DNA from: Patescibacteria group bacterium
Lineage (GTDB): Bacteria > Patescibacteriota > Patescibacteriia > UBA2591 > CALHIP01
Assembly: GCA_026417895.1 (NCBI GenBank)
Contig: JAOACJ010000014.1
Span: 63-64,062, forward strand
DNA: 64,000 nt
Reading direction: 5' to 3'
In this document: positions 28,680 through 58,000 of the stretch, in pieces
Position numbering within the stretch: the first letter of the stretch is position 1
Layout: every line of letters starts with the position of its first letter
Translations under genes and position numbers: made by a program
Notes under the pieces: generated by a model
The model's database searches: none
What the model saw: only the letters and a program-made list of their open reading frames with translations
Told to the model about the DNA's origin: nothing

Positions 28680-28797
28680 CACCCCGCCCTTATTCCAACA
28701 ATAAACTTACAAAATATAGAAAGTAAAAGGCGAAGCCGCCTTACAGTTTTCATCTTTGTAAATCACAAGTTTTTCGAGAGAATAAGTGCGGGGTACG
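28680..28797 (+). ncRNA. conserved structured element, copy 1 (mraZ leader)
   Basis: 5' 'caccccgcccttattcc...aaaaggcgaagccgcc' and a 3' complementary arm 'gaataagtgcggggtacgg'. About 80% identical to the minus-strand element at 39226-39311. Confidence 0.35.
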
Positions 28798-28860
28798 GAA
28801 TTTTGTCCTAAAATTTCCATCGCTCTGCTCTGCGCGCTCGTAAATTTTAACCAAATTCGT

Positions 28861-36350: not shown

Positions 36351-36839
36351 TTATCGCGTGATGGAAATATTCGTCGCTGGTGCCTCGGCTCCACAGGCCC
36401 CAACCGTTACTCGACCACCTTCTACTTTTACCGCATAATAGCTAGTATTAGCTGTGCCATTAACTGGATCTGACGGTCGGGTGGAAAGGTAGGTGGGGAC
36501 AAGGGCACTGATAAAATCTTGACCGGTACATCCTTTATTGATAGTGCCAAGATCACCTTTACTACAATCAATGTTGCATTCAGCGGCAGAGGTAGCATTG
36601 CCAATGACTTTTGCGTCTGAGGTTAAACCAGATGGCCAGGAACCGTTATTGTCAATATAATACTGAAAAATGGCATTGAGGATAGCCAAGATATCATTTC
36701 TTCGAGCAGCATTTCTTGCTTGAGCTAATTGCCTGGTCGGATTAACAGCGACAATGACAATGCCGGTCAAAATTGAAATAATGCCAATGACAACCAGAAG
36801 TTCGATAAGAGTAAAACCCTTTTTCTTTTTCATACTCAT
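36351..36839 (-). CDS. type IV pilin (major pilin candidate)
   Basis: Canonical prepilin leader 'MSMKKKKG|FTLIELLVVIGII'. Confidence 0.75.
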   Translation of the reverse strand: MSMKKKKGFTLIELLVVIGIISILTGIVIVAVNPTRQLAQARNAARRNDILAILNAIFQYYIDNNGSWPSGLTSDAKVIGNATSAAECNIDCSKGDLGTINKGCTGQDFISALVPTYLSTRPSDPVNGTANTSYYAVKVEGGRVTVGACGAEAPATNISITR

Positions 36840-36844
36840 AATTT

Positions 36845-37921
36845 TTATTTCTTCAATAGATTTATCTCGACTTTTTGAAAATCTTTTTCTAAGGCTCTCA
36901 GAGCCAAACCGATAACATTAGCCGATAAAATTCTTTTTTCTTCTTGAGCCAAAAAATCACCCTTGATATTTGTTAATGGTTCGCCCCTCGTTGTCTCCAA
37001 ACCAAGTTTTTTTTGAAAATAAGCACTAATGCCTGGCAGTAAACTTGAACCACCAGCCAGAATAATTTTTTTAACTTGATGGTAGGTCGTCTGCTGGTAA
37101 AAGATTAAAATCCTTCTTGCTTCATCAATAATTGGTAGCGCTTCCTTTTTCAAAACTTGTTCTACCTTGGGATATTTCTGAGGACGAAAGCCTTCTGCCA
37201 CTTTTATTTTTTCTGCCTCTTCAAAAGATAAACCAAGAGCTTCTGAGACTTTTTTAGTAAAAAGATTACCAGCGACACGAAGATAATGGTTGAAAACTAA
37301 TCCTCTTTCGTCAAAAAGACTAAAAACACTTGTTCTCTGACCAATATCAATAATCAATATACCTTCATCCTTTGGAATCTCTTTGATTAAAGCTCGTCTC
37401 AAAGAAAGCGGTTCTAAATCAAAAACTATTGGTGTTAAATGAGCAATTTTCAAGGTTTCTTGCCAGTCATCAATTAACTCTTTTCGACAACCAGCAAAAA
37501 AGACTTGTTGGATTTTATTTATTTTACCAATAATTTGAAAATCTGTGTAGAGTTGGGATGTGGATAAAGGAAAAACTTGTTCGGCTTCATAGATTAAGGC
37601 TTCGGAAAGCTCTTTCTGAGTTAAATTGGCGGGTAGTTGAAAAAGATAAGTAAAAACCTGAGAGCTGGGTAAAGAAAGCAAACAAAATTTTTCTTTAATT
37701 GGCCTTGGTTTCGCTTGATCGAGAACCTCTCTAATGTTTTTCGCTAACTCATTTTTTTCTTTAATTAAACCATTTTCTACTAACTGAGCTGATGGTAATT
37801 CTTTATGACCATAACTTTCAATTTCTATTTTACTTCCTTTTCTTTTTAAAATTAAAGCTTCAATCGAGGTATCAGAAACATCTAAACCAAAAGCTTGTTT
37901 TTTTTGGAAACCAAATAACAT
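36845..37921 (-). CDS. pilM: type IV pilus assembly protein PilM
   Basis: Actin-like ATPase fold, 'FGLDVSDTSIEALIL'. Confidence 0.75.
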   Translation of the reverse strand: MLFGFQKKQAFGLDVSDTSIEALILKRKGSKIEIESYGHKELPSAQLVENGLIKEKNELAKNIREVLDQAKPRPIKEKFCLLSLPSSQVFTYLFQLPANLTQKELSEALIYEAEQVFPLSTSQLYTDFQIIGKINKIQQVFFAGCRKELIDDWQETLKIAHLTPIVFDLEPLSLRRALIKEIPKDEGILIIDIGQRTSVFSLFDERGLVFNHYLRVAGNLFTKKVSEALGLSFEEAEKIKVAEGFRPQKYPKVEQVLKKEALPIIDEARRILIFYQQTTYHQVKKIILAGGSSLLPGISAYFQKKLGLETTRGEPLTNIKGDFLAQEEKRILSANVIGLALRALEKDFQKVEINLLKK

Positions 37922-37955
37922 AAATTAGCAATGGGAATTTGAATATTGTCTTATC

Positions 37956-39161
37956 TTATTGTCCTATTTGCCCAATAAATTGATAAATTGGCAGAATAAT
38001 GGAAACGGCTAAGAGACCAACACCCAGACCAATAATAATCAGTAAAATTGGTTCAAGGACACTGGTTAAATTTTTAATCGTTCGATCAACCTCAGTTTCA
38101 TAGAAATCAGCTAAATAATGAAAAGAATCTTCAAGGTTACCAGTTTTTTCCCCGACATTCAAAATTTTTGCTACTGATAAAGGAAATTCTTGGGGAAAGT
38201 TTTCTAAATTTGAGGCAAGGGTTTCGCCGCGTCGAAGAGCGGGAATAATTTTTTCTAAAGTTTTTTTATAAACTTCGTTACCGATTGTTTCAGCGACAAC
38301 TTCAAGAGATTTCGGTAGAGTCAGTCCACTTTTTAAAAGCGTCTCACTCGTTCGGGCAAATTGAGCCAAATTATTATTTTTTGTCAATCGACCAAAAATG
38401 GGTAGTTTAAGATAAAGAATGTGCAAAATCGATTTTATTCTCCTCAGTTGAGAGAGAAACCGAAAAACAATGACTAAGAGGATTAGACCAATAAGAATAA
38501 AAAGTGTATTTTTAGCGAGAAAGTTCATAATAGAGAGAAAAATTTTAGTAATCAGAGGAATAGAAACATCAAGTTTCGCAAAAAGACTAAGAATTTTTGG
38601 TAAAAGAAACTGAGAAAGTGCCAAAGAAAGAAGAATAGCCACGATCACCACAATCGTTGGGTAGGTGAGACTGGCTTTGACCTTTTTTTTCAATTCATAT
38701 GATTTTTCTAATTGTTCAGCCAGATAGACAAGAGAAGATTCTAAAGTACCACTTGACTCAGCTGTTTTAATGACACCAATAAAAAGAGGAGAGAAGTATT
38801 TTGGATAAAGAGCAAAAGAAGAGGATAAAACTTCTCCTTGCTCAACCCTTTTTTGAATTTCCGCCAGAATAGTTTTTAATTTTAAATTTACAGTTTGTTC
38901 AGAAAGAGTTTTTAAAGATTCGCTCAAAGAGAGGCCACTCTTAATCATCATCTGTAAATTTCTGACTAAATTGATTTTTTCTAATTCTGAAATGCGACCA
39001 AAACTGAAAAGAGGTTGTCTTTTCACCCTCTTTGGTATTAAAGAAATAATAATCAAGTCTTGGACTAAAAGCATTTTGGCGGCTTCATCTTTATTAGCTG
39101 CCTCAATTTCTCCTTTTTTTATTTGTCCGGCTTTAGTGGAAACAGTGTATTGAAAAAGCAT
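37956..39161 (-). CDS. pilC: type IV pilus platform protein PilC (GspF family)
   Basis: Two GspF repeats, three TM segments. Confidence 0.85.
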   Translation of the reverse strand: MLFQYTVSTKAGQIKKGEIEAANKDEAAKMLLVQDLIIISLIPKRVKRQPLFSFGRISELEKINLVRNLQMMIKSGLSLSESLKTLSEQTVNLKLKTILAEIQKRVEQGEVLSSSFALYPKYFSPLFIGVIKTAESSGTLESSLVYLAEQLEKSYELKKKVKASLTYPTIVVIVAILLSLALSQFLLPKILSLFAKLDVSIPLITKIFLSIMNFLAKNTLFILIGLILLVIVFRFLSQLRRIKSILHILYLKLPIFGRLTKNNNLAQFARTSETLLKSGLTLPKSLEVVAETIGNEVYKKTLEKIIPALRRGETLASNLENFPQEFPLSVAKILNVGEKTGNLEDSFHYLADFYETEVDRTIKNLTSVLEPILLIIIGLGVGLLAVSIILPIYQFIGQIGQ

Positions 39162-39225
39162 ACCAATTTTCTTATCTCTTAAAAATTTTAAGATATCATT
39201 GAAAAAATTTTTACTAGAAAATTGA

Positions 39226-39311
39226 GTACCCGCGTACAGGGCCGTTAGGCGGTTTCGCCTTTAGTCTTTCTCTGTCGGAAGTTTATCGCTGGAATAAGTG
39301 CGGGGTAAGGG
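39226..39311 (-). ncRNA. conserved structured element, copy 2 (pilB-pilC intergenic)
   Basis: The minus strand reads 'cccttaccccgcacttattccagcgataaacttcc...aaaggcgaaaccgcctaacgg...gtacgcgggtac'. Same orientation relative to its downstream gene as copy 1. Confidence 0.35.
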
Positions 39312-39364
39312 TTTTCTGGATAAATTTTCTACAACTTTTGTCTTGAAAATTTATATAAAATTCT

Positions 39365-41056
39365 TTATTTAGTTACTCTTAAAACCTCTTCAACTGTTGT
39401 TAAACCCAAAAAGACTTTTTCTAATCCATCTTCAATCATCGTCGTCATTCCTTTTTGACAAGCCAGAGTTCTTATTTCGTCGGTATTTGCCTTTTGCATA
39501 ATTCTTTCTTTAATTTCTTCTTCTGGTTCCAACACTTCAAAGATACCAGTTCGTCCTGCATAACCAGTTTGATGACAAGCTTCACAACCAAGACCATGGT
39601 AAATTCTTATTTTTTCCTTATTTTGAATTGATTTTAAAAAGCGAGTTGGTAAATTACCAACACCGCTGAGTAAACTAAGAAATTCTTTCTGACTAATTTC
39701 TTCACTGACAATACACTTTCGACAGATAAGCCTGACTAGTCTTTGGGCAATGATGACATTGACTGTCGAAGCAATTAAAAACGGCTCAATGCCCATATCC
39801 ATTAGCCTAACTATGGTTGTCGGCGCATCATTGGTGTGCATCGTCGAAAGAACAAGATGGCCGGTCAAGGCGGCATTAACAGCAATGCCAGCTGTTTCTT
39901 GATCTCGAATTTCACCAACCATTAGAATATCGGGGTCTTGTCTAACTAAAGCCCTTAACCCTTGAGCAAAGGTTAAATTTGTTTTTGGATTAACTTGAAT
40001 CTGATTAACGCCCTCAATGTCATATTCAACCGGATCTTCAATAGTGGCAATATTAATATCTCTTTTATTGAGAATTTTTAAAATGGCGTAAAGGGTAGTG
40101 GTTTTACCACAACCAGTTGGTCCGGTAGCTAAAATCATTCCCCACGGCTTTTCAATATTAGCTCGGACAACTTTTTCATCTTTTGCTAAAAAACCAAGAT
40201 CTTCTAAATTAAAACGTCTGATCTTTTCGGAAAGCAATCTTAAAACTGCCTTTTCTCCTTTAGTCACCGGAACAATCGAAACACGGATATCAACTTTTTC
40301 ATTTTCGAATGTTTCTGAAAATCGACCGTCTTGAGCGGCAAAATGCTCATCAGTTCTGAGTTTAGCCAAAAGTTTAATTCGGGAAATAATATAATCATGA
40401 ATATCTTTTGGCAATTCTAAAACATCATGAAGAATTCCGTCAATTCTGAATCGGACAACTGTTTTTTTCTCAAATGGTTCGAAGTGAATATCTGAAACTC
40501 GATTTTGATAAGCGTAATTAATAATTGTGTCTAAAATTTTAATGATCGGCAACTCTTTTTCCTCCTCTTCTGCTTTTTTAGTATATTCTTCAATCAGATT
40601 TTGAAATTCTTGCTTTAATCCCTTTTTGTATCGGACTAGATTTTCTTTTAAATCTTTTTCGGTCGCATAATAAGGGATAACTTTAAAACCAGTCTTTTTT
40701 TCGATTAAAGAAATAATCTCTAAATCTCCCGGATTATTCATTGCTAGCTTAATTTTCATTCCTTTTAGATCTTGACCGAAGGCCATTACCTTTTGTTTTT
40801 TAGCCACCACTTCTGGAATTATATTTAAATCATCTTCTTTAATAATTTCTTTTTTTAAATTGACAAAAGGATAGCCAAGAAATTCTGCTTTGAGTTGTCC
40901 TAACTGTTCATCGCTCATTTTGCCTGAGCTGATAATTAACTCCTCTAAATTTTTGTTTTCTTCTTGAGCTTGTTTCTCTAAATTTTGAAAATCTTCAGGA
41001 CTTAAAAATCCCGGCTCAACTAGAATTTTCTTCAATTGTTCACTTGTTAGTTCCAT
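39365..41056 (-). CDS. pilB: type IV pilus assembly ATPase PilB (GspE family)
   Basis: Walker A 'GPTGCGKTTT', tetracysteine 'CRKC...CEAC'. Confidence 0.9.
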   Translation of the reverse strand: MELTSEQLKKILVEPGFLSPEDFQNLEKQAQEENKNLEELIISSGKMSDEQLGQLKAEFLGYPFVNLKKEIIKEDDLNIIPEVVAKKQKVMAFGQDLKGMKIKLAMNNPGDLEIISLIEKKTGFKVIPYYATEKDLKENLVRYKKGLKQEFQNLIEEYTKKAEEEEKELPIIKILDTIINYAYQNRVSDIHFEPFEKKTVVRFRIDGILHDVLELPKDIHDYIISRIKLLAKLRTDEHFAAQDGRFSETFENEKVDIRVSIVPVTKGEKAVLRLLSEKIRRFNLEDLGFLAKDEKVVRANIEKPWGMILATGPTGCGKTTTLYAILKILNKRDINIATIEDPVEYDIEGVNQIQVNPKTNLTFAQGLRALVRQDPDILMVGEIRDQETAGIAVNAALTGHLVLSTMHTNDAPTTIVRLMDMGIEPFLIASTVNVIIAQRLVRLICRKCIVSEEISQKEFLSLLSGVGNLPTRFLKSIQNKEKIRIYHGLGCEACHQTGYAGRTGIFEVLEPEEEIKERIMQKANTDEIRTLACQKGMTTMIEDGLEKVFLGLTTVEEVLRVTK

Positions 41057-41057
41057 A

Positions 41058-41426
41058 TTAAAGGTGTTTTTTTATTCTTTCCACTACTTCCGGCAGTGAT
41101 TGTTGAGATTTAACAAGATAATCAACGGCGCCAAATTTCAAAGCTTTTTCCCGATCTTGTTCTTGACCCAAACAGGAAAGAATGATAATTTTTGTTTCTT
41201 TTATCTTATCACTTTTTTGTTTTTCGGCCAAAAATTCAAAACCATCCTTTTGGGGCAAAATCAAATCAAGGACAATCAAATCATATTTTTTTTCTTGAAT
41301 TTTTTTTAGGGCCTCTTCACCATTAAAAGCTGTTTCAACCTCTAAATTAGTCTCAGAACTAGCTAACTTTGAGGCCAAAAGTTTGGCCAAAAATTGATCA
41401 TCCTCAACAATAAGAATTTTTTTCAT
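41058..41426 (-). CDS. response regulator, receiver domain only (PilH/CheY-like)
   Basis: 'ILIVEDDQF...DLIVLDLILPQKDG'. Confidence 0.8.
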   Translation of the reverse strand: MKKILIVEDDQFLAKLLASKLASSETNLEVETAFNGEEALKKIQEKKYDLIVLDLILPQKDGFEFLAEKQKSDKIKETKIIILSCLGQEQDREKALKFGAVDYLVKSQQSLPEVVERIKKHL

Positions 41427-41487
41427 ATTGCGATACTAATACACCTGAGAGAAGCTAATGATGCGAATTTTTATCATCAATATTCAT

Positions 41488-42708
41488 TTATTTGTTGGTA
41501 TCGATTTGGTCTTTTAATTTCGTCTTTTCGTAGGGGAGGGTAAAATAGAAAGTTGAGCCCTTATTTTCTTCTGATTCAAACCAAATTTTGCCTTTTAAAT
41601 CATCGATAAGTTTTTTAACAATATAAAGGCCCAAACCAGTACCGTCGGGTTGATAACGAAGAGCATTGGGTGCCCGAAAGAATTTTTGAAAAATATCTTT
41701 TTGTTTATCTTTAGGAATACCAATCCCTTCATCTTTGATAGAAATTATAATTTCTGTATCAGTTTTTCCGGCAGTAATTTTAATTTTTCCGCCTGGTCGA
41801 GAATAATTGATGGCATTTGAAAGAATATTATTAAAAATAATCTCTAAGAATTTCTGGTCCAAGAAAACTTTAGGTAAAAACTGCTTTTCAAAAATAATTT
41901 TTAATCCCTTTCCCTCGATTAAAAAATTAAACTGTTTAATTTTTTCTTCTAAAAAGAGATTAAGGTCTGTCTCTTGACTTCTGGTTTTAATTGGTTTTCC
42001 ATCTAAATCAGTAATGGCTAAAAGATCGTTCACTGATTTCATCATTTTTATCTGGGCGCGCTTAATTTCTTCCAGATATTCTCTTTTTTCTACGTCAACT
42101 TTTTTATTCTCAAGTAATTCGTCGGTGATCCAACCAATTGAAGAAATCGGCCCACGTAACTGATGACTGGCAATGGTAATAAACTCACTCTTTTTTTCGT
42201 CAAGTTCTTTCAAAAAATCAATTTCTTTTTTAGCTTGAAGGGCAAGAAGAAAACTTAAATAACTAATAATCGCCACCGAAGAAAGACTTAAAAAAACGAA
42301 ATCAAGAAAAAACGAAATTTTTAACCAGATACTTAAACCAAACATTAAAAGATAATAAAAAACAATAATGATTAATAAACCAATGAGAGCTGGAATATGG
42401 GCAGTGGAAGCGGCGGCTAATAAAGGTAAAAAAATAAAAGGAAAAAGCGGGCTTTGGAAAGAACCGCTGAAGTGGATAAATAAAAGGATAAAAAGGGTAT
42501 AAAAACCTAAATCAATAAAAAATTTTTCATAACGCCAATATCTTTTTGAGATGAAAAATAAACTGATGAACGAATAAAAAGTCATGGCAACGATGATAGA
42601 TAGAAACCAGAGAGATTCTTTAGGTGGGAAAAAATAAAACCAAACGAGGAGAATCAAAATTAAAATTGGCACTACTAAACGAAAAATTTTATGATACTGT
42701 TCGTACAT
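41488..42708 (-). CDS. sensor histidine kinase (polytopic N-terminus, PilS-like)
   Basis: H-box 'ASHQLRGPISS', HATPase 'GTGLGLYIVKKLIDDLKGKIW'. Confidence 0.8.
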   Translation of the reverse strand: MYEQYHKIFRLVVPILILILLVWFYFFPPKESLWFLSIIVAMTFYSFISLFFISKRYWRYEKFFIDLGFYTLFILLFIHFSGSFQSPLFPFIFLPLLAAASTAHIPALIGLLIIIVFYYLLMFGLSIWLKISFFLDFVFLSLSSVAIISYLSFLLALQAKKEIDFLKELDEKKSEFITIASHQLRGPISSIGWITDELLENKKVDVEKREYLEEIKRAQIKMMKSVNDLLAITDLDGKPIKTRSQETDLNLFLEEKIKQFNFLIEGKGLKIIFEKQFLPKVFLDQKFLEIIFNNILSNAINYSRPGGKIKITAGKTDTEIIISIKDEGIGIPKDKQKDIFQKFFRAPNALRYQPDGTGLGLYIVKKLIDDLKGKIWFESEENKGSTFYFTLPYEKTKLKDQIDTNK

Positions 42709-42866: not shown

Positions 42867-43334
42867 ATGAGTATATTCTCATACTTTCGTAAAATTTTCA
42901 TATTTCGCAAAAGCCTCTCTTTTTCCTTTCTCGAAGGTCTTCTGGTTATTGCCATTTTAGGTATTATTTTTTCCTTAAGCACCATTGCTTTCATTCGTTT
43001 CCAAAAAACTTACGAATTGAAAACAACAGCTAATGAATTGTTTCAGAATTTAAAAAGGGCGCAGGCTAAAGCCATGTCCCAAGAACAAGATAAAAATTGG
43101 GGGATAAAATTTGAGCCAGAAAACAAAAAATATTATCTTTGTTCGGATAATTGCACGACTAATCTTGAAACGTTTACTTATTCAACGAACATCAATCTGA
43201 CTTCTTCTCTCAATCCAATTATTTTCCAAAAACTTTCGGGTACACTGACGACGGCTGGCACCATCAATCTTAATCTTGATTCTCAGACTAAAACGATTAC
43301 TATTACGACAGCTGGTTTGATTATTCTTAATTAA
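42867..43334 (+). CDS. prepilin-like protein (atypical, Ser at -1)
   Basis: 'KSLS|FSFLEGLLVIAILGII' has Phe+1, Glu+5 and a hydrophobic helix. Confidence 0.45.
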   Translation: MSIFSYFRKIFIFRKSLSFSFLEGLLVIAILGIIFSLSTIAFIRFQKTYELKTTANELFQNLKRAQAKAMSQEQDKNWGIKFEPENKKYYLCSDNCTTNLETFTYSTNINLTSSLNPIIFQKLSGTLTTAGTINLNLDSQTKTITITTAGLIILN

Positions 43335-43404
43335 AGTTTTCCACAACTAAATTCTAGATTGTCAAAAAAATAATTTGTTCTATAATTAAACCGAAGGTAA
43401 GAAT

Positions 43405-43752
43405 ATGAAAAAGACTAATCTAAAAAAGACTAATGTAAAAAAGACTAAGAAATATACCACCGATGAGGTCAAAAGATATATGAAGATTTTGGCTGAGGAT
43501 TTTGAGGTCAAGGTGAAGGTTATTGCTGAGCAATATTTGAATATCAAAAAGACCCTTGATCAACACACCAAAATTCTTGATTCTCATAGCGCCATTTTAG
43601 CTTCTCATACTGAAACATTAGAAATTATGAAAATTGATATCCAATTCATCAAAAACTCTCTTAAAGAAAAAGAAAAAGTTGATCTGCAAGAATTTAAAGC
43701 CCTGGAAAGGCGAGTGGCTCTTCTTGAAGCAAAGATAAGAGTTTTAAAATAA
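43405..43752 (+). CDS. small helical protein, paralog 1 (T[KT]D[DE]-R-M-L-E family)
   Basis: 'TTDEVKRYMKILAE' aligns with paralog 2 'TKDDMREIMEMLEG'. Confidence 0.35.
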   Translation: MKKTNLKKTNVKKTKKYTTDEVKRYMKILAEDFEVKVKVIAEQYLNIKKTLDQHTKILDSHSAILASHTETLEIMKIDIQFIKNSLKEKEKVDLQEFKALERRVALLEAKIRVLK

Positions 43753-43762
43753 AAAAATAATT

Positions 43763-44674
43763 ATGAAAAGATCTTTTTCTCTCATTGAATTAATGGTTGC
43801 TTTGGGCGTTTTTGTTTTGGTGGCGAGCGCCATCATTTTTTTAGTCATTGGTAGTCAGCAATGGCAAAAGGTTTCTCAAGAAAGAGCAGTTGCTATCCAA
43901 CTGGCTCAAGAGGCGATGGAAGCAGTTCGTTCGATTCGTGACCGCGATTGGAACGAATTAAAAACAGATTCGCGGTGTAGTGAGCAAAATCTAAGAACAC
44001 GAACTTATGGTTTAAAAATTGTCAATAATGCTTGGACTTTAAGTACGCTTGAAATTGATAAAAAAGTGACCCTTAACAACAAAGAATATACCCGCCTCAT
44101 TAAAGTAGATTGTGTTTTTGAAAATGGCATTGCCAATCCAGACAAGAAAAAAATTACCGTTGAAGTTTCCTGGGGTGTCCTACCTGGTCGGTCAATTAGT
44201 TTAGTTTCTTATTTGACCAACTGGCGATCTGCTGATTTTGCCACTAAAACCAAAGGCGATTTTGAAGCCGGCGTTTTTGAAAACACTAAATTAATTGATG
44301 GCAACAATCCGATTATCAAACTTGATGATTTGGCTGGTGCCACCATCCGAGCTAATGAGTTTTTTATTGATGGTTTTACCAACACTTCAGAAATTACCAC
44401 TAACAAAAAAATCTCCTTCCGTTTTACCGCCCAAAACAACAAGACTCCTAATCAGGTCAAATTTTATATTAATCAAGTTTCTCAGCCTGGTACTTTTCGG
44501 GCTGGTTTACAGAACAATGCTAATGGTCAGCCATCCGGCACTTGGCTTTGTTCAAATATCTTTTCGGTCCAACAAAATTTCATCGGTTGGCAAACAGTTA
44601 ATCTTTCCGGTTGCCCAGCAATCGGTCCTAATACCGATTATAAAATTGTCCATCTCGTCATTGAGCCACAATAA
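43763..44674 (+). CDS. prepilin-type minor pilin / pseudopilin (303 aa)
   Basis: 'MKRS|FSLIELMVALGVFVLV'. Confidence 0.65.
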   Translation: MKRSFSLIELMVALGVFVLVASAIIFLVIGSQQWQKVSQERAVAIQLAQEAMEAVRSIRDRDWNELKTDSRCSEQNLRTRTYGLKIVNNAWTLSTLEIDKKVTLNNKEYTRLIKVDCVFENGIANPDKKKITVEVSWGVLPGRSISLVSYLTNWRSADFATKTKGDFEAGVFENTKLIDGNNPIIKLDDLAGATIRANEFFIDGFTNTSEITTNKKISFRFTAQNNKTPNQVKFYINQVSQPGTFRAGLQNNANGQPSGTWLCSNIFSVQQNFIGWQTVNLSGCPAIGPNTDYKIVHLVIEPQ

Positions 44675-44714
44675 AAGCCCTTTCTCAGCATTTAAAAATT
44701 AAAAATTTTAAAGT

Positions 44715-44963
44715 ATGCCTCAAGATAAAATTATTTTAAAATTATTAGAGCATGATGAACGATTAGAGAGAATCGAGGAGAAAATGGCAACAAAAGACGA
44801 TATGAGAGAAATTATGGAAATGCTGGAGGGAATTACCACCATTGCTCAGCGCCTTGATCAAGAAAGAATTTTTACGGCTGAATGGGTTAAGCGCATCGAG
44901 AAAGAAGTTGAAGAACATCGCCAGGAAATTATCAAAATTAAAAAAGTTTTAAAAATTACTTAA
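44715..44963 (+). CDS. small helical protein, paralog 2
   Basis: See paralog 1. Confidence 0.35.
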   Translation: MPQDKIILKLLEHDERLERIEEKMATKDDMREIMEMLEGITTIAQRLDQERIFTAEWVKRIEKEVEEHRQEIIKIKKVLKIT

Positions 44964-44990
44964 AATCTCAATCAATCTCTTTTGTAATTT

Positions 44991-47900
44991 ATGAGGAAAA
45001 AAATTTTTAAAATTTTGTTGCCGGGTTTGGTTACTTTAACCCTCATTTTTTCTTTTTTTGAATTTAACCTTCACTCTTTTTTTCTTCAGGCTCAAGAGGC
45101 AATGAAAATTGAAGTACCAATTGAAATGGTTGACTATGGCTTGGCTTCGTCAAGAGAAGCGACTCTTTTTAATCGGACAAAAATCTTTCTTGACCCCAAT
45201 GATTATCAAGCTGATTCAACCAATTACTTTTTTGAAATCGTGGCTATAAATACAGATGAAAGAGAGGGAAGAGTTGTCTTGGTTGATTCTAAGAAGCAAC
45301 CAGTCGCCGAGATTACTGTACCACCCCAGACCAATCAACCAGCCCGTTTTAGAACAAAAGAGCCTTTTAGTTTATCTCAGGATGAATATCTTATTATACT
45401 GGAAGGAACCTCAGCAGAGAATCAACTTCAGGTTTATGCCGCCAGAATTATTATTCAACAAACGAATCCTCAAGTAACAAGAATCCAAATTCCCTTAACC
45501 AGCGGTCCAGATGATAGTTATTCTTTTAAAGAGACAGCAATTGATCAAGTAGAAAGTGGAAATTATATTCAGCCACAACCTCAATTTTACCATCTCTGGT
45601 CCTATCGTTCTCTTGATTGGGTGAGTTTAGCTGAGAGTAATCCTTTTACCTTAGAAGCTGTTTTAGCCGGCGATATTAGTGCTGCACTTTTTGATCAAAA
45701 TAATCAAATAGTTAGTGGTTCAGAAATTTCTGTCTCCAGCCAAACTCCTCTTTTGATGCAAAAAGATTTTACTGATTTAGTTGATGCTACTTATCAGTTA
45801 AAAATTAGAGGTAGAGAAGGCTTAATTTATCGGGCTGCTCTTTATCTGAGATTAACCAATCCAATAGCTTTAGAAATTTATTATCGTTATCAAAGAATGA
45901 GACAGTCTCAGACAGCTGAAATTAGAAGCTATCAAAGAGTGCTTTATGATGCCAGCCAATTTCCTGAGCATCAGATTTATCATGAAGCAACCGGTCAAGG
46001 GCAAAACCTAATGGCTGTCATTTACGACCATAGTCAAAATGAGAGCGGTACTACCAATGGCAACAACATTGAATCTTCAGCTATTAATTTTAACTCATCA
46101 GAGAAAATATTAATGCGGACTTCTCCTTTTTCTCTAACCTCTGGCAACCGCTTTATTTATTCTGTTCTTGGCGAAAGTGGCGATTTAATTTTAACCAGCG
46201 CCTCAATAGTCATTAAAATTGGTCAGCCAAAAATTGACCAGACCCACTATCGCTGGCGCAATGATAATGGTGGAGAATTGGGCGGTAATTTTGAGGTAGT
46301 TACACTTTTGCCCAATGGTAATGGTGACGAAATTACTTGGACCCCTTATCCTAATACTCCCAATCATTATACTTTAGTCGCTGACGAAAGTGATAACTCA
46401 TACGTTTATAAAACCATTCAGACCGATCTGGCCATTTTCCGTTTCGGTCTTAAAGAAAGTAATGGTTCTGTCTCTAGTTTTTCTGTTACTTTGACAGGAG
46501 ATTATGCTGAGTATTCTTATCAATGGAGTGTTAAACCATCAAATGGTCAGCCTTGGACACCTAGCGCGATTAATGATTTACAGATTGGGGTGGCCTATAA
46601 TATACTTGAAGAAATACCAATACCAGGTAAAGGAGAGATACCTGAAGAAAAAGAAGAATTAGAAGAGTCGTTTCATATTGCAGACCTTTCTTTACCTACT
46701 GGTGTTGTCATTGATTATGTTAAAGTCTTTGTCCGGGCTAAAAGGGTCTGTCGTGTAGGTCCTGAATGGCCTCCAACTTATAATTGTACTGCTTTTACGG
46801 CGAAAATGTGGGCAGAGGTTAAGTATTATCCCGGCGCGACCTATAAAGCTGACGAGGATACGCCCGTGACCAATCAAGTAAAAAATAAAAATGTCCGTTT
46901 AAGATTTTCTTTGAAGAATACCGGCTCAGCTCCAGCGGTTAATTATCAATATCGCCTCCAAGTGGCTCCAAAAGGTACGGCTAGTAGTTGCCTAGAAGTG
47001 CCGCCTGAAAATTATACGGATGTGCCAACAGCTGGGAACTGTGGTTCAGCTGTTGCTTGTATGGCTGATTCTTCATATCTTGATGATGGCCAAGCAACAA
47101 CCTGGCAACTGAGTGGGCCGGGTGAAGATTGGACTTGGGCAGACGGTAAAATAGTTGAAAGGCCTTCTAATCAGACATCTCAATTTACTTTAGAAACGAA
47201 ATCTTTTACGGAATTTGAATATAATTTTCAATTCACTAATAATGCTATTGGCGGCGCTACCTACTGTTTTCGGTTATCAAATGCTGGTGAAGGTTTGGAT
47301 AATTATAATCAAATCGCGGCTATTACCTTATTACAAACACTACCATCTTTCCGTCTTAGAGTCTCCACACCCTTAAATTATAAACAGCCCTATAATCATT
47401 CTGAGCCGGCTAAAAATTTTAATGACTCCGCTTCTAATGTGCTTTATTGGAACGGCTCGTCTTGGCTGGTTCAAAACCAACAACCGATTTATCTTATTGG
47501 TTTTAGCGATGGTAGTTTTGAGGGAAATCCGTATGATGAAGAGAATCAAACCGATAACCAGATTAATAGTTCTTCAATAAAAATTGGTCAACAATTTACC
47601 GTGCCAGCTGGAGCAGCAACTCAAAAAGTCATTCAGACTAGCTTTTATCTTAAAAAGACAGGCAACCCACCAGATCTTCTTCTTACTTTAGAAAAAGTTG
47701 GTGGTAGTTCGGTTACAAAAACTATTTCTGCCAATACCGTCTCTAATCAATATGCTTGGGTCGAAGCACCAGCTTTTGATGAAGCCTTTAATTTAGAAGC
47801 CAATGCCACTTACCGCCTTTATCTTTCTTGTGCTGGCTGTAGTGCAAACAATTATTATCAAGTCAAAAGATTAAAAACAATGAGTGGAATCAATAGTCTG

Positions 47901-50309
47901 ACTTATGATGGTGGCATTGATTCAGGATTAATTTATACTACCACAGGTACCTTTGGCAACCCTATAAATAACGAAGATACTCTTTTCCGTCTTAAAGAAT
48001 TTGCTGGCTTTCCAACTACTGGCAATTATATTTCTGCCCAAACATCTACCGGTAGCACAGCTACTACTTATTCTCATCTTGATTGGAAACAAGAAATTCC
48101 GAGCGGTGAAGTTTGTCCCACCGATCCAGTTCGTTTTCAAATTGGCACCGCTAACTTAGTCAGTGGTAGTTGTCCAGCCAGTCCGAATGCCTATTCCTAT
48201 TATGGCCCAAATGGTATCGGTGGTCCAATGTGGTGGTATGAAGAAAACGGTGTTCGTTGGAAAAAACGGCGTTCGATTACTATCAATAATCCCAGTGGTC
48301 AGGAATTAAAAAATTATCAAATTCTGTTGACTATAAATACCGCCGAATTAATCTCGGCTGGCGAATTACAAAGTGATTGCGATGATCTTCGATTTACCAG
48401 TTTATCTGGTGCCAGTCTAAATTATTGGCTCGAATCTGGTTGTAATACCTCTCAAACAAAAATCTGGGTGAAAATTCCTTATCTTCCTGCTACTCCCACC
48501 TCTAACACTACTAAAATTTATCTTTATTACGGCAACGCCAATGCCTCCTCTGCCAGCAACGGCGATGCGACGTTTATTTTCTTTGATGATTTCAACGGCA
48601 CGAGTTTGGATACGAGCAAATGGACAGAGCAAAAAGGTGGGACAACGAGTTTAAGTGTTAATAATGGTCAGATTACTTTTCATCATCCAGCCGTCCAGGG
48701 TAATTATATTTGGATCTATTCTAATAATAAATTTTCTTACCCAGTTTGGCAGGAGGTGAGATGGATTTCTTTTGACATCAGCGATGCCACGCCTCGATTT
48801 GGACAATCAACGACTACCAATTTAAGGACGAATGGTAATTATTATAATAATTATTCTGCTGATGTGGGTTTCAACTCGGCATATAGAATTGTCGGCGACA
48901 ATTCAAATAGTGGTTGGACTGTTTCTTCTACTTCAGTGAGTGGCCAGCGGCCTGAGATTTGGAGTTTTGCCTGGCCAGCCACTGGTTCGCAAATTTTTAG
49001 AAAAAATTACTCTTTACTATTGACCGGCAGTGATAATATAAACACTATCGCCGATTATTATCTTTATTTAGGCATAGCAGAGCGGACGGCAAATCAGACA
49101 GCTGTTGCTGATTGGGTACGTGTCCGTAAGTACGTCTCAGTAGAGCCAACACAGGGAGGATGGGGTGAAGTAGAAACATATAGTCCAGAAGATTATTACG
49201 CCGGCGACCTAAATACCTACTGCCAAAATGTGACCGGTGGTCAATTCTGTTCCCGCGAAATTTGTCCGGATCGACTGGCTGGCTTTCAATATCGCAAAAA
49301 AATTAACTTAACCGGTGCTCAAGGCGCTGGTAATGGCTATCAAGTGAAATTAAAAATTGGCAAAACTTCAGCTGCCATCGGTGAAGATTTTGACCTCAAT
49401 GGTAATGTTCAAGATTCTTTCAATGATATTAGGTTTACTGATGACGATGGTGTGACTTTATTGAATTACTGGATAGAATCAGTGGCTGATAGTGGCGGAA
49501 CGAAATTAGCGACAGTTTGGGTAAAAGTGAATGATAATTTAGATAATAATCAGTCGATTTATATCTATTATGGCAATGCCAATACCTCTTCAGCCAGCAA
49601 TGGTGAAGGTACTTTCGTTCATTTTCAAGATTGGAATAATTCAAATGGCTGGACTTTAAGCAAATCTTCAGTTTCTAATAGTGAACTTTTTCTTGACCCC
49701 GATGGTTTTCAGCCAGCAGCTTCAGCAAGGCGAACCGAGTTGTTGGGGGCAGGCTATGCTTTGCGAAGTCGACTTGACTGGGCTGATGAAGGCGGGCCAT
49801 GGAAAGAACAAGGGTTTGGTTGGGGTGATTTTGATCACTCATACGAATACGGCAATCATCAGGTTCGAAATGGTATTTGGGTAAGATGTTTCTATGGGTC
49901 ACCTTATCCAACTCAGTTTATTACTAAAAAAGACGGCATTGAAACATACACTCAGGTGACTTCTTTTCGGACAGGAGGATACAACACAGTCGAACTTCGT
50001 TGGCCATCTAATACACGAGCAGAGTTTTCTTTAAATGATGATGCGCCGGTTGTTCATACTACTAATATTCCTACTGGTAGTTATTATCAACATCATTGGT
50101 ATCAGTATTTCGGTACCGCTATTCAAAAAGTAGATTGGACTTTAATTCGTAAATATGTTTATCCGGAGCCAGCTATTCAATCAATCGATGCCCAGGAAAT
50201 AGTCTATCCTCATCAGAACCAGCCCTGCCTACGCTACCGATTTTTACTTCTCAACTGTCAAAACAACTCACCAAAAGTTAAGGAAGTCAAAGTCAATTAT
50301 ACACCATAA
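44991..50309 (+). CDS. giant secreted protein (1772 aa) with two DUF2341-like plus LamG/ConA-like modules
   Basis: Signal peptide. Repeated module 'DCDDLRFTS..LNYWLES...KIWVKIPYLP...KIYLYYGNANASSASNG..TFIFFDDFNG' and 'DIRFTDD..LNYWIES...TVWVKVNDNL...IYIYYGNANTSSASNG..TFVHFQDWN'. Confidence 0.55.
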   Translation: MRKKIFKILLPGLVTLTLIFSFFEFNLHSFFLQAQEAMKIEVPIEMVDYGLASSREATLFNRTKIFLDPNDYQADSTNYFFEIVAINTDEREGRVVLVDSKKQPVAEITVPPQTNQPARFRTKEPFSLSQDEYLIILEGTSAENQLQVYAARIIIQQTNPQVTRIQIPLTSGPDDSYSFKETAIDQVESGNYIQPQPQFYHLWSYRSLDWVSLAESNPFTLEAVLAGDISAALFDQNNQIVSGSEISVSSQTPLLMQKDFTDLVDATYQLKIRGREGLIYRAALYLRLTNPIALEIYYRYQRMRQSQTAEIRSYQRVLYDASQFPEHQIYHEATGQGQNLMAVIYDHSQNESGTTNGNNIESSAINFNSSEKILMRTSPFSLTSGNRFIYSVLGESGDLILTSASIVIKIGQPKIDQTHYRWRNDNGGELGGNFEVVTLLPNGNGDEITWTPYPNTPNHYTLVADESDNSYVYKTIQTDLAIFRFGLKESNGSVSSFSVTLTGDYAEYSYQWSVKPSNGQPWTPSAINDLQIGVAYNILEEIPIPGKGEIPEEKEELEESFHIADLSLPTGVVIDYVKVFVRAKRVCRVGPEWPPTYNCTAFTAKMWAEVKYYPGATYKADEDTPVTNQVKNKNVRLRFSLKNTGSAPAVNYQYRLQVAPKGTASSCLEVPPENYTDVPTAGNCGSAVACMADSSYLDDGQATTWQLSGPGEDWTWADGKIVERPSNQTSQFTLETKSFTEFEYNFQFTNNAIGGATYCFRLSNAGEGLDNYNQIAAITLLQTLPSFRLRVSTPLNYKQPYNHSEPAKNFNDSASNVLYWNGSSWLVQNQQPIYLIGFSDGSFEGNPYDEENQTDNQINSSSIKIGQQFTVPAGAATQKVIQTSFYLKKTGNPPDLLLTLEKVGGSSVTKTISANTVSNQYAWVEAPAFDEAFNLEANATYRLYLSCAGCSANNYYQVKRLKTMSGINSLTYDGGIDSGLIYTTTGTFGNPINNEDTLFRLKEFAGFPTTGNYISAQTSTGSTATTYSHLDWKQEIPSGEVCPTDPVRFQIGTANLVSGSCPASPNAYSYYGPNGIGGPMWWYEENGVRWKKRRSITINNPSGQELKNYQILLTINTAELISAGELQSDCDDLRFTSLSGASLNYWLESGCNTSQTKIWVKIPYLPATPTSNTTKIYLYYGNANASSASNGDATFIFFDDFNGTSLDTSKWTEQKGGTTSLSVNNGQITFHHPAVQGNYIWIYSNNKFSYPVWQEVRWISFDISDATPRFGQSTTTNLRTNGNYYNNYSADVGFNSAYRIVGDNSNSGWTVSSTSVSGQRPEIWSFAWPATGSQIFRKNYSLLLTGSDNINTIADYYLYLGIAERTANQTAVADWVRVRKYVSVEPTQGGWGEVETYSPEDYYAGDLNTYCQNVTGGQFCSREICPDRLAGFQYRKKINLTGAQGAGNGYQVKLKIGKTSAAIGEDFDLNGNVQDSFNDIRFTDDDGVTLLNYWIESVADSGGTKLATVWVKVNDNLDNNQSIYIYYGNANTSSASNGEGTFVHFQDWNNSNGWTLSKSSVSNSELFLDPDGFQPAASARRTELLGAGYALRSRLDWADEGGPWKEQGFGWGDFDHSYEYGNHQVRNGIWVRCFYGSPYPTQFITKKDGIETYTQVTSFRTGGYNTVELRWPSNTRAEFSLNDDAPVVHTTNIPTGSYYQHHWYQYFGTAIQKVDWTLIRKYVYPEPAIQSIDAQEIVYPHQNQPCLRYRFLLLNCQNNSPKVKEVKVNYTP

Positions 50310-50372
50310 AATAAAATTTTTAATTTCTAATTTTGAATTTTGAATAAATTTTTAATGGTCTAATTTTGAAAG

Positions 50373-50678
50373 ATGAAGAAATATGATTTAGAAGAGAGAA
50401 CGGCAAATTTCGGTGAAAAGGTAATTAAATTCTGTAAAAATTTAAAACAAGATGCTATTTCTAAACCGATTATCAGTCAATTAATTCGCTCAAGCACGAG
50501 TATCGGTGCCAATTATATGGAAGCTAACGCTGCCAGTTCAAAGAGAGATTTCAAAAATAAAATTTTTATCTGTAAAAAAGAAACTCAAGAAACAAAACAC
50601 TGGTTACGGATGTTGGCTCAATATTTCTCAGAGAGAAGCAGTGAAATCAAAAACTTTGGCAAGAGGCACAAGAGTTGA
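50373..50678 (+). CDS. four-helix-bundle protein (23S rRNA intervening-sequence protein family)
   Basis: 'SQLIRSSTSIGANYMEA...KRDFKNKIFICKKETQETKHWL' matches the family pattern. Confidence 0.65.
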   Translation: MKKYDLEERTANFGEKVIKFCKNLKQDAISKPIISQLIRSSTSIGANYMEANAASSKRDFKNKIFICKKETQETKHWLRMLAQYFSERSSEIKNFGKRHKS

Positions 50679-50718
50679 CTTTAATTTTCGGCAAAATTAT
50701 TGGCTCACTCAATAAAAA

Positions 50719-51459
50719 ATGATTTTTAAAATTCAAAAATTCAAAATTGATTCAAAATTAAAAATTCAGAATTCAGAATTGACAAATAAAGGTTTTACTC
50801 TCATTGAAATTCTCTTATACTTGGCCATTGTTTCGGTAGTGCTGGTTGTCGGCACTATTTTTATTTGGCAGGTCATTGAGGGTGGCGAGCGGGCGAATCA
50901 ATTAGAAGAACTGCGCGAAGCCAGCCGTTTTGTTTTAGAAAAAATCAGTCAAGAGGTAAAAAAAGCTAGAAATGTTTTAGATCCACCGAGTTGTCAGAAA
51001 TTTACCAATCAAACAGATTGTCAAAGTTATTGGGCTTGTCTCTGGCAGAATAACAAATGTTTTGTTACTTGCACTAGATACAACAATCAGCCTGATTGCG
51101 AAAATCATAATTGTATCTGGAGTAACGGTGTCTGCAGTGGCAGTGAGCCAAAAAATCTCTGCCCAGTCGATCCGGAAAACAATAAAGAAACTTGTTTAAC
51201 GATTGCCAAACCTGATGGAACTATGGTTAAATTTTATCGCCAAACTTATACAAATGTGAAAAGGATTGTTCAAAAAACAGGAAACAACGAGCCAGTAGGT
51301 TTGACCTCTGGCTTAGTTGACATTACTTCGTTGAAAATTGCTAATCTTTCACCCGACAAAGGATCAGGCATCATTAGAATCGAAATGACCTTAAAACACA
51401 AAAATAATCCACGTCTAACCTTTACTGCCCAATCTTCTATTTCTTTACGCGATAATTAA
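50719..51459 (+). CDS. prepilin-type protein with Cys-rich globular domain
   Basis: 'TNKG|FTLIEILLYLAIVSVV', then 10 Cys ('CQKFTNQTDCQSYWACLW..CFVTC..'). Confidence 0.6.
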   Translation: MIFKIQKFKIDSKLKIQNSELTNKGFTLIEILLYLAIVSVVLVVGTIFIWQVIEGGERANQLEELREASRFVLEKISQEVKKARNVLDPPSCQKFTNQTDCQSYWACLWQNNKCFVTCTRYNNQPDCENHNCIWSNGVCSGSEPKNLCPVDPENNKETCLTIAKPDGTMVKFYRQTYTNVKRIVQKTGNNEPVGLTSGLVDITSLKIANLSPDKGSGIIRIEMTLKHKNNPRLTFTAQSSISLRDN

Positions 51460-55020: not shown

Positions 55021-58000
55021 ATGATCAAAGAAGCAATGAAGAAAATTTTATCCTGGTTTTTATCAGGAGTTCTGATTTTTTCAGGATTCTTTGTTGTTTT
55101 GGAAAAACCAGTCAGAGCGGAATGGGCGAATTATGTGGTTATTAGTGAGTTTGCGACCCGCGGTTCAACTAGTGCCTATGATGAGTTTGTTGAATTATAT
55201 AATCCGACTGAAAATATTGTTGATATCAGTGGTTGGAAATTACAATATTGGGGCGGCAGTACCTGGACCACCAAATTAACAATTCCGTCTGGAACAAAAA
55301 TTTTACCCCACCGGTATTATTTAATGTCTTCTTCGTCTCAATATTTTACTACCACAGTTTCTGATCTAACCCATAATTCATATTTGGCTCTGGCTGATGG
55401 CACAGCAGGAGATCCGCGAGGGATCAGAATAATTACTGCTGATAATATGGTAATAGATACAATAATATACGAAGCGGACGGCGGAACTGATAATTCCCTT
55501 GCGGAGGGTGGGAAGACAGCTCCTGCCCCTAATTATCGTGCCAACACTTATAACAGAAGCGTAGAAAGAAAGCCTGGTGGAGAAAGTGGCAACGGACAAG
55601 ATACAAATATCAATGGTCATGATTTTTTTGTAAGAGATCAAAGGGACCCAACGAACTCTCAAGCCTTACCTCGACCACCAATTGAGCAACCACCGTCGTC
55701 GCAACCGCAATGCGGAAACGGTACCTGTGAAACAGGAGAAAGTTCAGAAAACTGTCCCCAAGATTGTCAGTTAAATCAACCAGTTTGCGGTAATAATCTT
55801 AAAGAAGAAAAGGAAGAATGTGACAAGACTGATTTGGCCGGCCAAACTTGTATGACGCTCGGCTTTGTGAGTGGCACTTTAAGCTGTAATAATAATTGTA
55901 CTTTTAATACCTCTCAATGTACTTCTGGCGGTAGCTATCCACCGCCGATAGTTGAACAAGTCAAGCCAGGCGATATTGCTATTAATGAATTTGTTTCTGA
56001 TCCGGTTGATGGTGAAGAGGAGTGGATTGAGCTCTATAATAACACTGACAAAGAAATTGATTTAACAAATTGGCAAATTGAAGAAGGATCGGGGGTACGA
56101 ACAACTTTGTCCGGCACAATTAGTTCAAAGAGTTTTTTTGTTGTTGAAAAAATTAAAGGTTATTTAAACAACTCAGGTGACATTATTATTTTAAGAGGGG
56201 CCAATGGTCGAATTATTGATCAAGTTGTTTATGGCAGTTGGGATGATGGCAATAGAGAAGATAATGCGCCAGCAACCAAAGACCCAAATTCGGTAGCGCG
56301 AGTGGTCGATGGTCAAGATACGGATCGTGACTATTTAGATTTCAAAATTTCCACTTTACCAACAAAAAATGCACCTAATAAATTTGAAGAAGAGAAAGAA
56401 TATCCTTTTGGTGTAATTTTTAACGAACTTTTACCAAATCCTAAGGGCGATGATTCGGAAAATGAATTTATTGAATTAAAAAATCTCAATGATTTTGAAG
56501 TTAATTTAGAAAATTGGCGATTAGAAGACGCCAGTGGGACAAAATTTGTTATTTCTTCACAAAAATTATCTTCGACGAAAATTCCAGGACGTGGCTTTTT
56601 TATCCTTTGGCGTCGGGATTCAAAAATCGCTTTAAATAATTCTGGCAGTGAAAGAGTAAAACTCTATCAACCAAATGATAATTTAGTTGATGAAATCAGC
56701 TACAGCGGGACAGTTGCTGAAGACATTGCCTATGCCAAAGAGGAAACAAAAAATTGGTTTTTGACTACACAACCAACACCAGGACAAGAGAATATTATTA
56801 AGAAGGTTAATCAGAAACCAAAGGCGGTAATCTCGGCACCGAATAAAGCCTTGGTCAACGAAGAAATAATTTTTGATGCTTCTGATTCTTACGATCCAGA
56901 TGGTGATGGTTTAACTTATCTTTGGGATTTTGGTGACCAGACAAGGAGTAACGAGGTGGTGGCTAAACATTTTTATAAAAAAACAGGCAAATTTAATGTC
57001 AAACTTGAAGTTAAGGACAGTCTTGGCGAAAGCGAGGTGGTGAAATTAAGTCTTGAAATTTTACCTAACGAAAAAAAATTTTCTTATAGTCCACTTGAGG
57101 CAGAAATTTTTATCAGCGAATTTTTACCTAATCCAAAAGGGAGAGACGAGGCAGAATGGATAGAAATTTTTAATAATGGCGACAGAGAAGTCGATTTGTC
57201 GGGTTGGTTTTTAGATGACATGGATGGGGGAAGTAAACCGTATCAAATAAAAGAAGGGATAAAAATTTTGCCAGGTGAACATTTACTTTTTGAACGCAAA
57301 GAGACAAAAATTGCTTTAAATAATAATTTTGATTCTGTCAGAATTTTAGATCCAGAAGGAAATTTATTTTTTGAAGTCACCTACGAAAAACCAAAAGAAG
57401 GGTTTTCTTATGCTTTAGATGAAAATAGTGAATGGCGGTGGACATCGCTTTTAACCCCTGGTCAGAAAAATTTATTTAGTAGTGAAGAAGAGATAAAAAC
57501 AAAAAAGTCTTCAGCTAAAATAGCTGGCGAAGGGGAAAAATTTTTAGAAACTCCTTTATCAGAAGTAAGAAATCAAGAGATTGGTGATTTAGTTAAAACC
57601 CAAGGTATTGTTTCGGTTGAACCTGGTATTTTAGGAAAACAAATTTTTTATCTGGCTGGCTCAGGAATCCAAATTTATTCTTATCAGAAAGATTTTCCTT
57701 CTCTTAAACTCGGTGATCAAATTGAAGTAAGAGGTGAATTGGCCGAATATAAAAACGAAACGAGAATTAAAATTGCTTCCAAAGATGACATTAAAATTTT
57801 GGAAAGTAAAACTCCGCCCGAGCCAAAAAAAGTTAAAACTGGCGAGGTTGACGAAAGTTTAGAAGGAAATCTGGTGCTTATTGAAGGACAGTTAATCGAA
57901 TCGAGAACGAATTATTTTTATTTAGATGATGGCTCCGGCGAAGTTAAAGTTTATCTCAAAGCAACAGCCGGTCTTAAAAAACCAAAAATGAAAGAAGGTA

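Follow-up and report, generated by a model that had tools for sequence, protein, structure and literature searches.

The window studied here is a 64-kb (64,000-nucleotide) stretch of contig JAOACJ010000014.1 (assembly GCA_026417895.1) from an ultrasmall bacterium of the Patescibacteria group. Its longest open reading frame (ORF), 44991..50309 on the + strand, encodes a secreted multi-domain protein of 1772 amino acids (aa). The gene is embedded in a row of prepilin genes, and we consider its product, here called the big protein, a candidate tip adhesin of a type IV pilus. NCBI has an identical entry on a contig of 64 kb, titled 'MAG: DUF2341 domain-containing protein [Patescibacteria group bacterium]'. 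An earlier reading of the letters alone (the sequence-only reading) had picked out this ORF as the window's largest gene, with an N-terminal signal and elevated GC content, and all three observations hold.

The protein begins MRKKIFKILLPGLVTLTLIFSFF... and its first 35 residues (44991..45095, +) form a signal peptide or a signal anchor. MRKK is followed by a hydrophobic stretch of ~20 aa and then by ...LQA/QE, the putative cleavage site. Hydrophobic 19-aa windows are confined to aa 4-27. In homologues, an ordinary signal peptide immediately precedes the module that comes next, the N-module. A class III signal peptide (G/A/S then F-T-L-I-E) is absent, and the N-terminus carries no F-x-x-x-E motif. 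The sequence-only reading had named sortase- or S-layer-type anchoring as evidence that would point away from a pilus. The protein has no LPxTG and no C-terminal hydrophobic segment or anchor, and the Pfam scan gave no SLH, S-layer or cell-wall-binding domain. A C-terminal tail (aa 1736-1772; 50196..50306, +) holds two Cys and is modeled at a per-residue confidence (pLDDT) below 50.

The gene has a GC content of 39.6% (0.396), against 33.6% (0.336) for the AT-rich window. Most of the excess is at codon position 2 (0.43 versus ~0.30 in the neighbors), while GC at position 3 (GC3) is near normal (0.30 versus ~0.25). The rise therefore reflects a composition rich in Gly, Ser, Thr, Asn and Trp more than clear foreign origin, and a foreign origin judged from GC was rejected as weak.

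The + strand row runs from 42867 to 51459. It opens with a GspH/ComGD-like minor pseudopilin (42867..43334, +; Pfam, NCBIfam and hidden Markov model (HMM) evidence), continues with a 303-aa PilV/ComGE-like minor pilin (43763..44674, +) and the big gene, and has as its last pilin a 246-aa prepilin (50719..51459, +) that reads ...NKG/FTLIE and contains a Cys-rich insert. The big gene thus does lie between prepilin-type genes, as first described, with small non-pilin ORFs interspersed. It is separated from the adjacent ORFs by 27 nucleotides (nt) upstream and 63 nt downstream, and no terminator-like sites were seen between the genes of the row. The 303-aa pilin is extended at its C-terminus by a further beta domain, matched weakly by DUF4082 and Big_7 (E ~1e-3), so the row already includes one modular pilin. 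The big gene is the window's only carrier of the two module types described below.

Two DUF2341 and jelly-roll units

The C-terminal part of the protein contains two copies of DUF2341 (PF10102), which Pfam matches far above threshold (E 2.1e-48; 163.1 bits against a gathering cutoff of 23.4). Copy 1 covers aa 1087-1215 (48249..48635, +) and copy 2 covers aa 1431-1553 (49281..49649, +). Both are supported by Pfam, pairwise BLAST, the structural model and a custom-built DUF2341 HMM, which places them at aa 1091-1215 and 1432-1553. The copies share 38% identity over 126 aa (E 1e-17). BLAST of the whole protein against itself returned only the identity match; pairwise BLAST of the halves revealed the repeat. 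Each copy is followed by a jelly roll, the first at aa 1216-1400 (48636..49190, +), ending 'VADWVRVRKYVSVEP', and the second at aa 1554-1735 (49650..50195, +), ending 'KVDWTLIRKYVYPEP' and modeled with lower confidence. The true repeat unit is thus ~310 aa, a DUF2341 domain plus a jelly roll that ends 'DW.R.RKY..EP'.

The sequence-only reading had described a ~200-aa DUF2341 module occurring twice, at about aa 1110-1240 and 1480-1590, with a LamG-like region after each copy. The family identity and the duplication were correct, and the motif cores do fall within these ranges, but the second copy starts ~50 aa earlier and the unit is longer than was thought. For the region after DUF2341, the fold was correctly guessed; the Pfam LamG models (PF13385, PF02210) found no match in the protein at E <= 0.1, and PF13385 does occur beside DUF2341 in some homologues.

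Searching with aa 1079-1772 retrieved 719 relatives, many of them archaeal, that carry the ~310-aa unit in one to three tandem copies. In these proteins the ~180 aa after DUF2341 start 'FFDDF.G..LD..KW' and end 'DW.RVRKY..PEPT'. An AlphaFold2 model of the C-terminal 694 aa, built on 42 of the 719 relatives, shows two pairs of beta sandwich and jelly roll (pLDDT 81) and no propeller. The PDB holds no solved DUF2341 structure. When the model was compared with the PDB by Foldseek, laminarinases and glucanases of glycoside hydrolase family 16 (GH16) dominated the top 50 matches (E 1.7e-7 to 1e-5; template-modeling (TM) scores, by target, of 0.5-0.64). By this model, the curved two-sheet jelly roll after each DUF2341 has the concanavalin A (ConA)-like lectin/glucanase fold, the superfamily of LamG, GH16 and DUF1080.

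These structural matches raise the question of whether the protein is a secreted GH16-type glycoside hydrolase that digests the cell-wall polysaccharide of a host, and a weak profile match to 2vy0 (E 0.1) points the same way. However, the protein nowhere contains the inner-sheet GH16 motif E-x-D-x(x)-E needed for catalysis, Pfam GH16 gives no match, and the jelly roll has no conserved acidic residues across the 42 homologues. We rejected the enzyme reading on the missing motif and regard it as very improbable. The conservation pattern instead divides the unit in two. In DUF2341, R1093, Y1109, Q1110, D1132, R1134 and F1135 are near-invariant in the alignment, as are W1146, E1148, W1159, the YxYYGN motif, G1191 and F1195, whereas the jelly-roll interior has almost no conserved residues across the 42-homologue alignment. 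We read the jelly roll as a probably non-catalytic, lectin-type domain of variable specificity on a conserved DUF2341 base. Because DUF2341 is strongly conserved while the jelly-roll interior is nearly free to vary, the unit may combine a constant scaffold or adaptor with a variable specificity domain.

The best match of the first DUF2341 and jelly-roll unit (unit 1) is itself a prepilin, P0033, with 50% identity over the whole unit (E 4e-88). Besides gene position, this is the strongest evidence for a connection to the pilus. P0033 starts '...YRS/FTLIEFIIVLGIISVLL', continues with a pilin domain and ends in DUF2341 and a jelly roll. P0132 has the same layout (a prepilin with S/FTLIE, a hydrophobic helix, a pilin domain and the terminal unit). 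Both lie in gene neighborhoods like those of the candidate phyla radiation (CPR).

Another relative, the 914-aa P0036 at locus L030, carries a unit 49% identical to that of the big protein. There a lipoprotein-type signal comes first, then Cys-rich 'CGxCGxxC...GCE' repeats spanning ~600 aa and after them the unit, and the gene adjoins tubulin-like, vWA and ligand-gated-channel-like genes.

The N-module and the middle region

The N-terminal 1085 residues had been overlooked by the sequence-only reading, including the most distinctive module of the protein. This N-module (aa ~36-415; 45096..46235, +) consists of three homologous jelly-roll subdomains of ~125 aa in one chain. Its HMM matches the big protein at aa 34-414 (E 8e-133). 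AlphaFold2 predicts aa 31-430 as an all-beta body with high confidence (pLDDT 94.3; predicted TM score 0.91), and hhalign relates the thirds to one another (D1-D3, 95% probability, E 8e-9; D1-D2, E 3e-6). The module has no match in Pfam, NCBIfam, PHROG or the PDB sequences. The family is undescribed and widespread, and where it occurs is suggestive.

All strong matches of the first 410 residues fall on this one module, which is N- or C-terminal in otherwise unrelated proteins with beta-helix, LamG, Ig-repeat or F5/8C architectures. When 1.84 billion representatives were searched with a profile of the module, 482 proteins matched at E <= 1e-30, so the family numbers at least 482 cluster representatives. 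GTDB species representatives searched with the single N-module protein sequence gave no relative. They were also scanned with a degenerate DNA pattern for the family's most conserved peptide, 'Q.[NG]ATKT[RK][IVL][QY][IVL]P[LM]', which covers ~33% of the family and is expected to give ~1.7 chance matches. The pattern occurs at 23 loci (L006-L028), 22 of which encode the N-module, and ~20 of these 22 are Bdellovibrionota metagenome-assembled genomes; taxon counts of this kind may be biased because they depend on one peptide pattern with partial coverage. In Bdellovibrionota the module stands at the very C-terminal end of long proteins built of Ig/FN3 repeats, some of which have lipoprotein signals. 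In IMG/VR the pattern lies on 12 viral contigs (L032-L043), all 12 true; in most of these the module is N-terminal or nearly so. Two metagenomic members (L003, L005) lie beside baseplate genes.

The N-module also occurs on pseudopilins. Of the four members fused in this way, P0022, P0025 and P0197 have a T2SSG pseudopilin as partner. P0022 closes the pilin row of a pilus operon, with pilN, pilO, a secretin gene, pilB and pilC as neighbors. Together with P0033 and P0132, these fusions show that both module types of the big protein are mounted on pilins in other organisms.

The closest PDB matches of the N-module model are engineered single-chain trimers of C1q, adiponectin and APRIL-BAFF, and a viral triple jelly roll. 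Among viral structures, the best matches include ~400-aa 'C1q domain' phage proteins. Because the TM scores against C1q/TNF-type heads are only ~0.2 (root-mean-square deviation ~22 Å), a three-fold C1q/TNF-like packing is a lead from the model and not a result. This lead recalls the MAT fibers of Bdellovibrio, whose trimeric TNF/C1q-like tips bind N-acetylglucosamine (PMC10769870). Both are jelly-roll heads capping long surface proteins of bacteria that fasten onto other bacteria, and the N-module family is concentrated in Bdellovibrionota. The MAT tips, however, are true homotrimers on beta-helix fibers, whereas the three diverged copies of the N-module share a single chain. The likeness lies in the predicted fold, and the packing may differ.

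The middle region (aa 416-1086; 46236..48248, +) has no Pfam or PDB-sequence match. A beta-rich domain lies in its first part (aa 416-837; 46236-47501). Between the first strand of this domain, 'HYRWRNDNGGE' (aa 416-430), and the remainder (aa ~614-837) stands an insert of ~180 aa. The sole homologue is the 2828-aa protein P0009, whose similarity is strong over aa 614-834 (E 2e-37) and weak over aa 415-429. In P0009 (locus L001, aa 2063-2616) the domain is split at the identical point, and there the insert holds a DUF2341 unit. Since the two proteins are split at one point by different inserts, the 'HYRWRNDNGGE' domain appears to contain a recurrent insertion hot spot, which the sequences suggest.

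Weak PHROG matches lie inside the ~180-aa insert. These matches, and the N-module genes beside baseplate genes and on viral contigs, would fit a big gene that is a prophage remnant or prophage cargo encoding a receptor-binding protein like a tail fiber. Against this, no phage genes surround the big gene in the window, where the neighbors are pilus and housekeeping genes, and its GC3 is close to that of the genome. We consider a prophage origin highly unlikely.

Other features of the locus

The minor-pilin row diverges from a - strand group that encodes the pilus machinery (36351..41056, -): a probable major pilin (36351-36839), pilM, pilC and pilB, the last carrying MshEN. Between pilB and the row lie genes that, judged from sequence features, encode a histidine kinase and a receiver-only response regulator (41058..42708, -). 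A 70-nt direct repeat (28748-28817 and 39260-39329; 70% identity; core AATAAGTGCGGGGTA) has its second copy in the pilC-pilB gap, where Rfam has nothing at the gathering threshold. It may be a regulatory or RNA motif.

Three small ORFs are interspersed among the pilin genes. Two encode highly charged, coiled-coil-looking proteins of 115 aa (43405-43752) and 82 aa (44715-44963) with no significant Pfam or NCBIfam match. The third (50373-50678) encodes a four-helix bundle of the 23S rRNA intervening-sequence protein family (TIGR02436, E 5e-18). Close to its 3' end it seems to carry a frameshift; continued in the next frame, it reads ELTLIFGKIIGSLNKK and would terminate in an ATGA shared with the start of the following prepilin. 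AT-rich inverted repeats of 57 nt (50315-50371 and 50724-50780; 77% complementary) bracket this ORF, and the right arm falls within the coding sequence of the prepilin leader. That leader is unusually long (25 aa). The same prepilin has ~10 Cys within ~60 aa ('CQKFTNQTDCQSYWACLWQNNKCFVTCTRYNNQPDCENHNCIWSNGVCSG'), which suggests a putative disulfide-knotted extra domain.

The four-helix-bundle gene resembles Avd and so suggested a diversity-generating retroelement. This was rejected, as the window contains no template/variable repeat pair. No long near-identical repeats in the window involve the big gene, and no reverse transcriptase turned up in those parts of the window that were examined for one.

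The gene at 55021-58275, 4.7 kb downstream of the big gene, encodes 1084 aa that comprise a signal peptide, four lamin-tail (LTD) domains (E 1e-63), PKD, a nucleic-acid-binding OB-fold and a C-terminal membrane anchor. By its domains the product could be an extracellular DNA-binding protein, a candidate for DNA uptake with the pilus. Its presence bears on an alternative in which the big protein is pilus-associated and serves a cargo of DNA, not host glycans, as a receptor or accessory of a competence-type pilus. The neighboring pilins are consistent with this, since they match the ComGD, ComGE and ComGF models best, all below cutoff. So is the archaeon Methanococcus maripaludis, in which a DUF2341 gene of the epd pilus locus was found in a screen for transformation defects (PMC10133366). 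However, loss of the pilus would explain the archaeal phenotype equally well. In addition, the Pfam scan detected no DNA-binding domain in the big protein, and its folds are lectin- and glucanase-like. A role in DNA uptake is therefore improbable, and we return to the tip-adhesin reading.

The tip-adhesin reading and its main rival

The sequence-only reading had suggested a pilus-associated adhesin or tip protein. We propose that the big protein is a large, exported, PilY1-like non-pilin adhesin that sits at the pilus tip, binds host glycans and works with the type IV pilus, and we put the probability of this at about 0.5. Several observations lead to the proposal. The flanking prepilin-type genes are on one strand, with short gaps and no terminator-like sites, and their row diverges from the pilus machinery. 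The nearest relatives of unit 1 are prepilins, and the N-module occurs on T2SSG pseudopilins. The protein combines ConA-like folds of variable interior with a triple jelly-roll head and lacks the GH16 motif. Finally, it carries no other anchoring signal. The prepilin relatives and the T2SSG fusions thus extend the case beyond gene position, and the protein stands as a candidate whose link to the pilus is circumstantial.

By sequence, the protein would be exported by the Sec system through its N-terminal signal peptide (step 1). Judging from the gene packing, it would be produced alongside the three minor pilins of the row, all encoded on the + strand (step 2). By analogy with known systems, and from the domain fusions elsewhere, it may then join the priming complex of minor pilins and travel outward at the pilus tip (step 3). 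There, the three-jelly-roll head and the two DUF2341 and ConA-like units would bind glycans on the surface of the host bacterium (step 4).

Several known systems resemble this arrangement. PilY1 of the Pseudomonas and Myxococcus type IVa pilus is also a large Sec-exported non-pilin encoded inside a minor-pilin operon, and is regarded as an adhesin seated on the tip complex of minor pilins. Gene order and the N-terminus place the big protein in the same position. It differs in having neither the C-terminal seven-bladed PF05567 propeller nor a vWA domain, so it is an analogue by position only. In the same superphylum, Nanosynbacter lyticus TM7x (Saccharibacteria) encodes PilX1, with a jelly roll like that of L-type lectins, and PilX2. 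They lack predicted PilD signal peptides and have been proposed as tip adhesins; PilX2 is needed for efficient host binding, and host glycans affect binding (PMC11623550). Like the big protein, they are the largest proteins of their minor-pilin locus, and both are proposed to bind host cell-wall glycans at the tip. PilX1 and PilX2 are much smaller, have a single accessory domain and are described as pilins, whereas the big protein has no pilin part and at least six domains (the triple head, the middle region and the two DUF2341 and ConA-like units). No sequence relation turned up, in searches that were not aimed directly at them. We regard the big protein as a candidate functional analogue of PilY1 and of TM7x PilX1 and PilX2.

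Modular pilins offer a further parallel. Of the modular pilins of Streptococcus sanguinis, PilC bears a lectin module (PMC9934059) and PilB a vWA module (PMC8179133). In both cases a ConA-like lectin module that binds glycans would be displayed by a pilus of the monoderm type, and P0033 and P0132 share precisely this layout of pilin plus module. The big protein has neither a class III signal peptide nor a pilin module and therefore cannot polymerize into the fiber as modular pilins do. A precedent by domain is archaeal. Makarova et al. proposed the DUF2341 giants of Methanococcus Epd pilus loci as tip adhesins (PMC4858521). These proteins (arCOG03508) are large, carry PF10102, often in tandem with jelly rolls, and are encoded in type IV pilus loci; they lack the N-module. 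DUF2341 has also been noted in giant Patescibacteria proteins (PMC11809585). The idea of a tip adhesin is thus not new, while the domain architecture is unique.

Several results weigh against a place at the pilus tip. The pilin-like helix that the sequence-only reading had advised looking for after the signal peptide is missing: the first beta strand of the AlphaFold model begins at aa 39, and Pfam and NCBIfam scans gave no N_methyl or T2SSG match. Pfam found no PilY1/PilC propeller and no vWA domain either. With none of these elements, docking to the pilus is not explained by known domains. The three small unrelated ORFs break up the pilin row, and the fit of the N-module to C1q/TNF-type heads is poor, as described above. 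Pilin fusions are a minority (2 of 122 DUF2341 matches and ~4 of ~160 N-module proteins), and most relatives of both modules lie away from pilus genes, including P0002, P0009, P0036, the Bdellovibrionota proteins and those at phage loci. Apart from the identical entry, a search of 5.8 billion clustered proteins gave no full-length homologue in which the arrangement of domains might be seen conserved. None of 80 metagenome loci around related pilB genes carries either module, and synteny is not conserved, a result we judge uninformative rather than negative. At the closest of these (L044, pilB 55% identical), oxidative-stress genes stand where the pilin row would be.

The main rival takes up several of these points. 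The big protein could be a glycan-binding protein on the cell surface, held by an uncleaved N-terminal anchor, or freely secreted, and be merely encoded, perhaps co-regulated, in the pilin row. The hydrophobic segment at aa 4-27 is long enough for a signal anchor, and the absence of a pilin-type N-terminus or a known docking domain agrees with such a protein, as do the relatives outside pilus loci, among them the lipoprotein-anchored Ig/FN3-repeat proteins of Bdellovibrionota. Yet the gene is embedded among prepilin genes on one strand, and pilins are the nearest relatives of unit 1. Moreover, the TM7x precedent shows that proteins of a minor-pilin locus without predicted PilD signal peptides have been proposed as tip adhesins. 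We therefore hold a surface protein off the pilus to be the less probable explanation, though the most serious of the alternatives.

A broader and more tentative idea concerns the N-module. It is possible, though we hold it rather doubtful, that the module is a natural 'single-chain trimer' recognition head common to phages, predatory Bdellovibrionota and epibiotic Patescibacteria or other bacteria, all of which need to attach to bacterial cells, and that the big protein is a composite device for host recognition. If so, the protein would join such a head to the DUF2341-lectin units that related Patescibacteria mount on pilins. The head would then be carried by phage tail-region proteins, by the tips of Bdellovibrionota surface proteins and by type IV pilus tip proteins, attached or fused.

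Attachment to other microbes is the way of life of Patescibacteria, and little is known of how a host is selected and gripped. From the work on TM7x, the leading candidates for host attachment are type IV pili whose tip proteins resemble lectins, and the locus described here is a concrete and unusually rich one. Its building blocks appear to be interchangeable between free tip proteins and pilin fusions. The conservation pattern offers a testable idea about the long-unknown role of DUF2341, as a scaffold or adaptor for a variable lectin. The triple jelly-roll family, which numbers hundreds of cluster representatives and is concentrated in predators and phages, merits formal definition and a solved structure. 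It could serve as a general marker of proteins that recognize bacterial surfaces.

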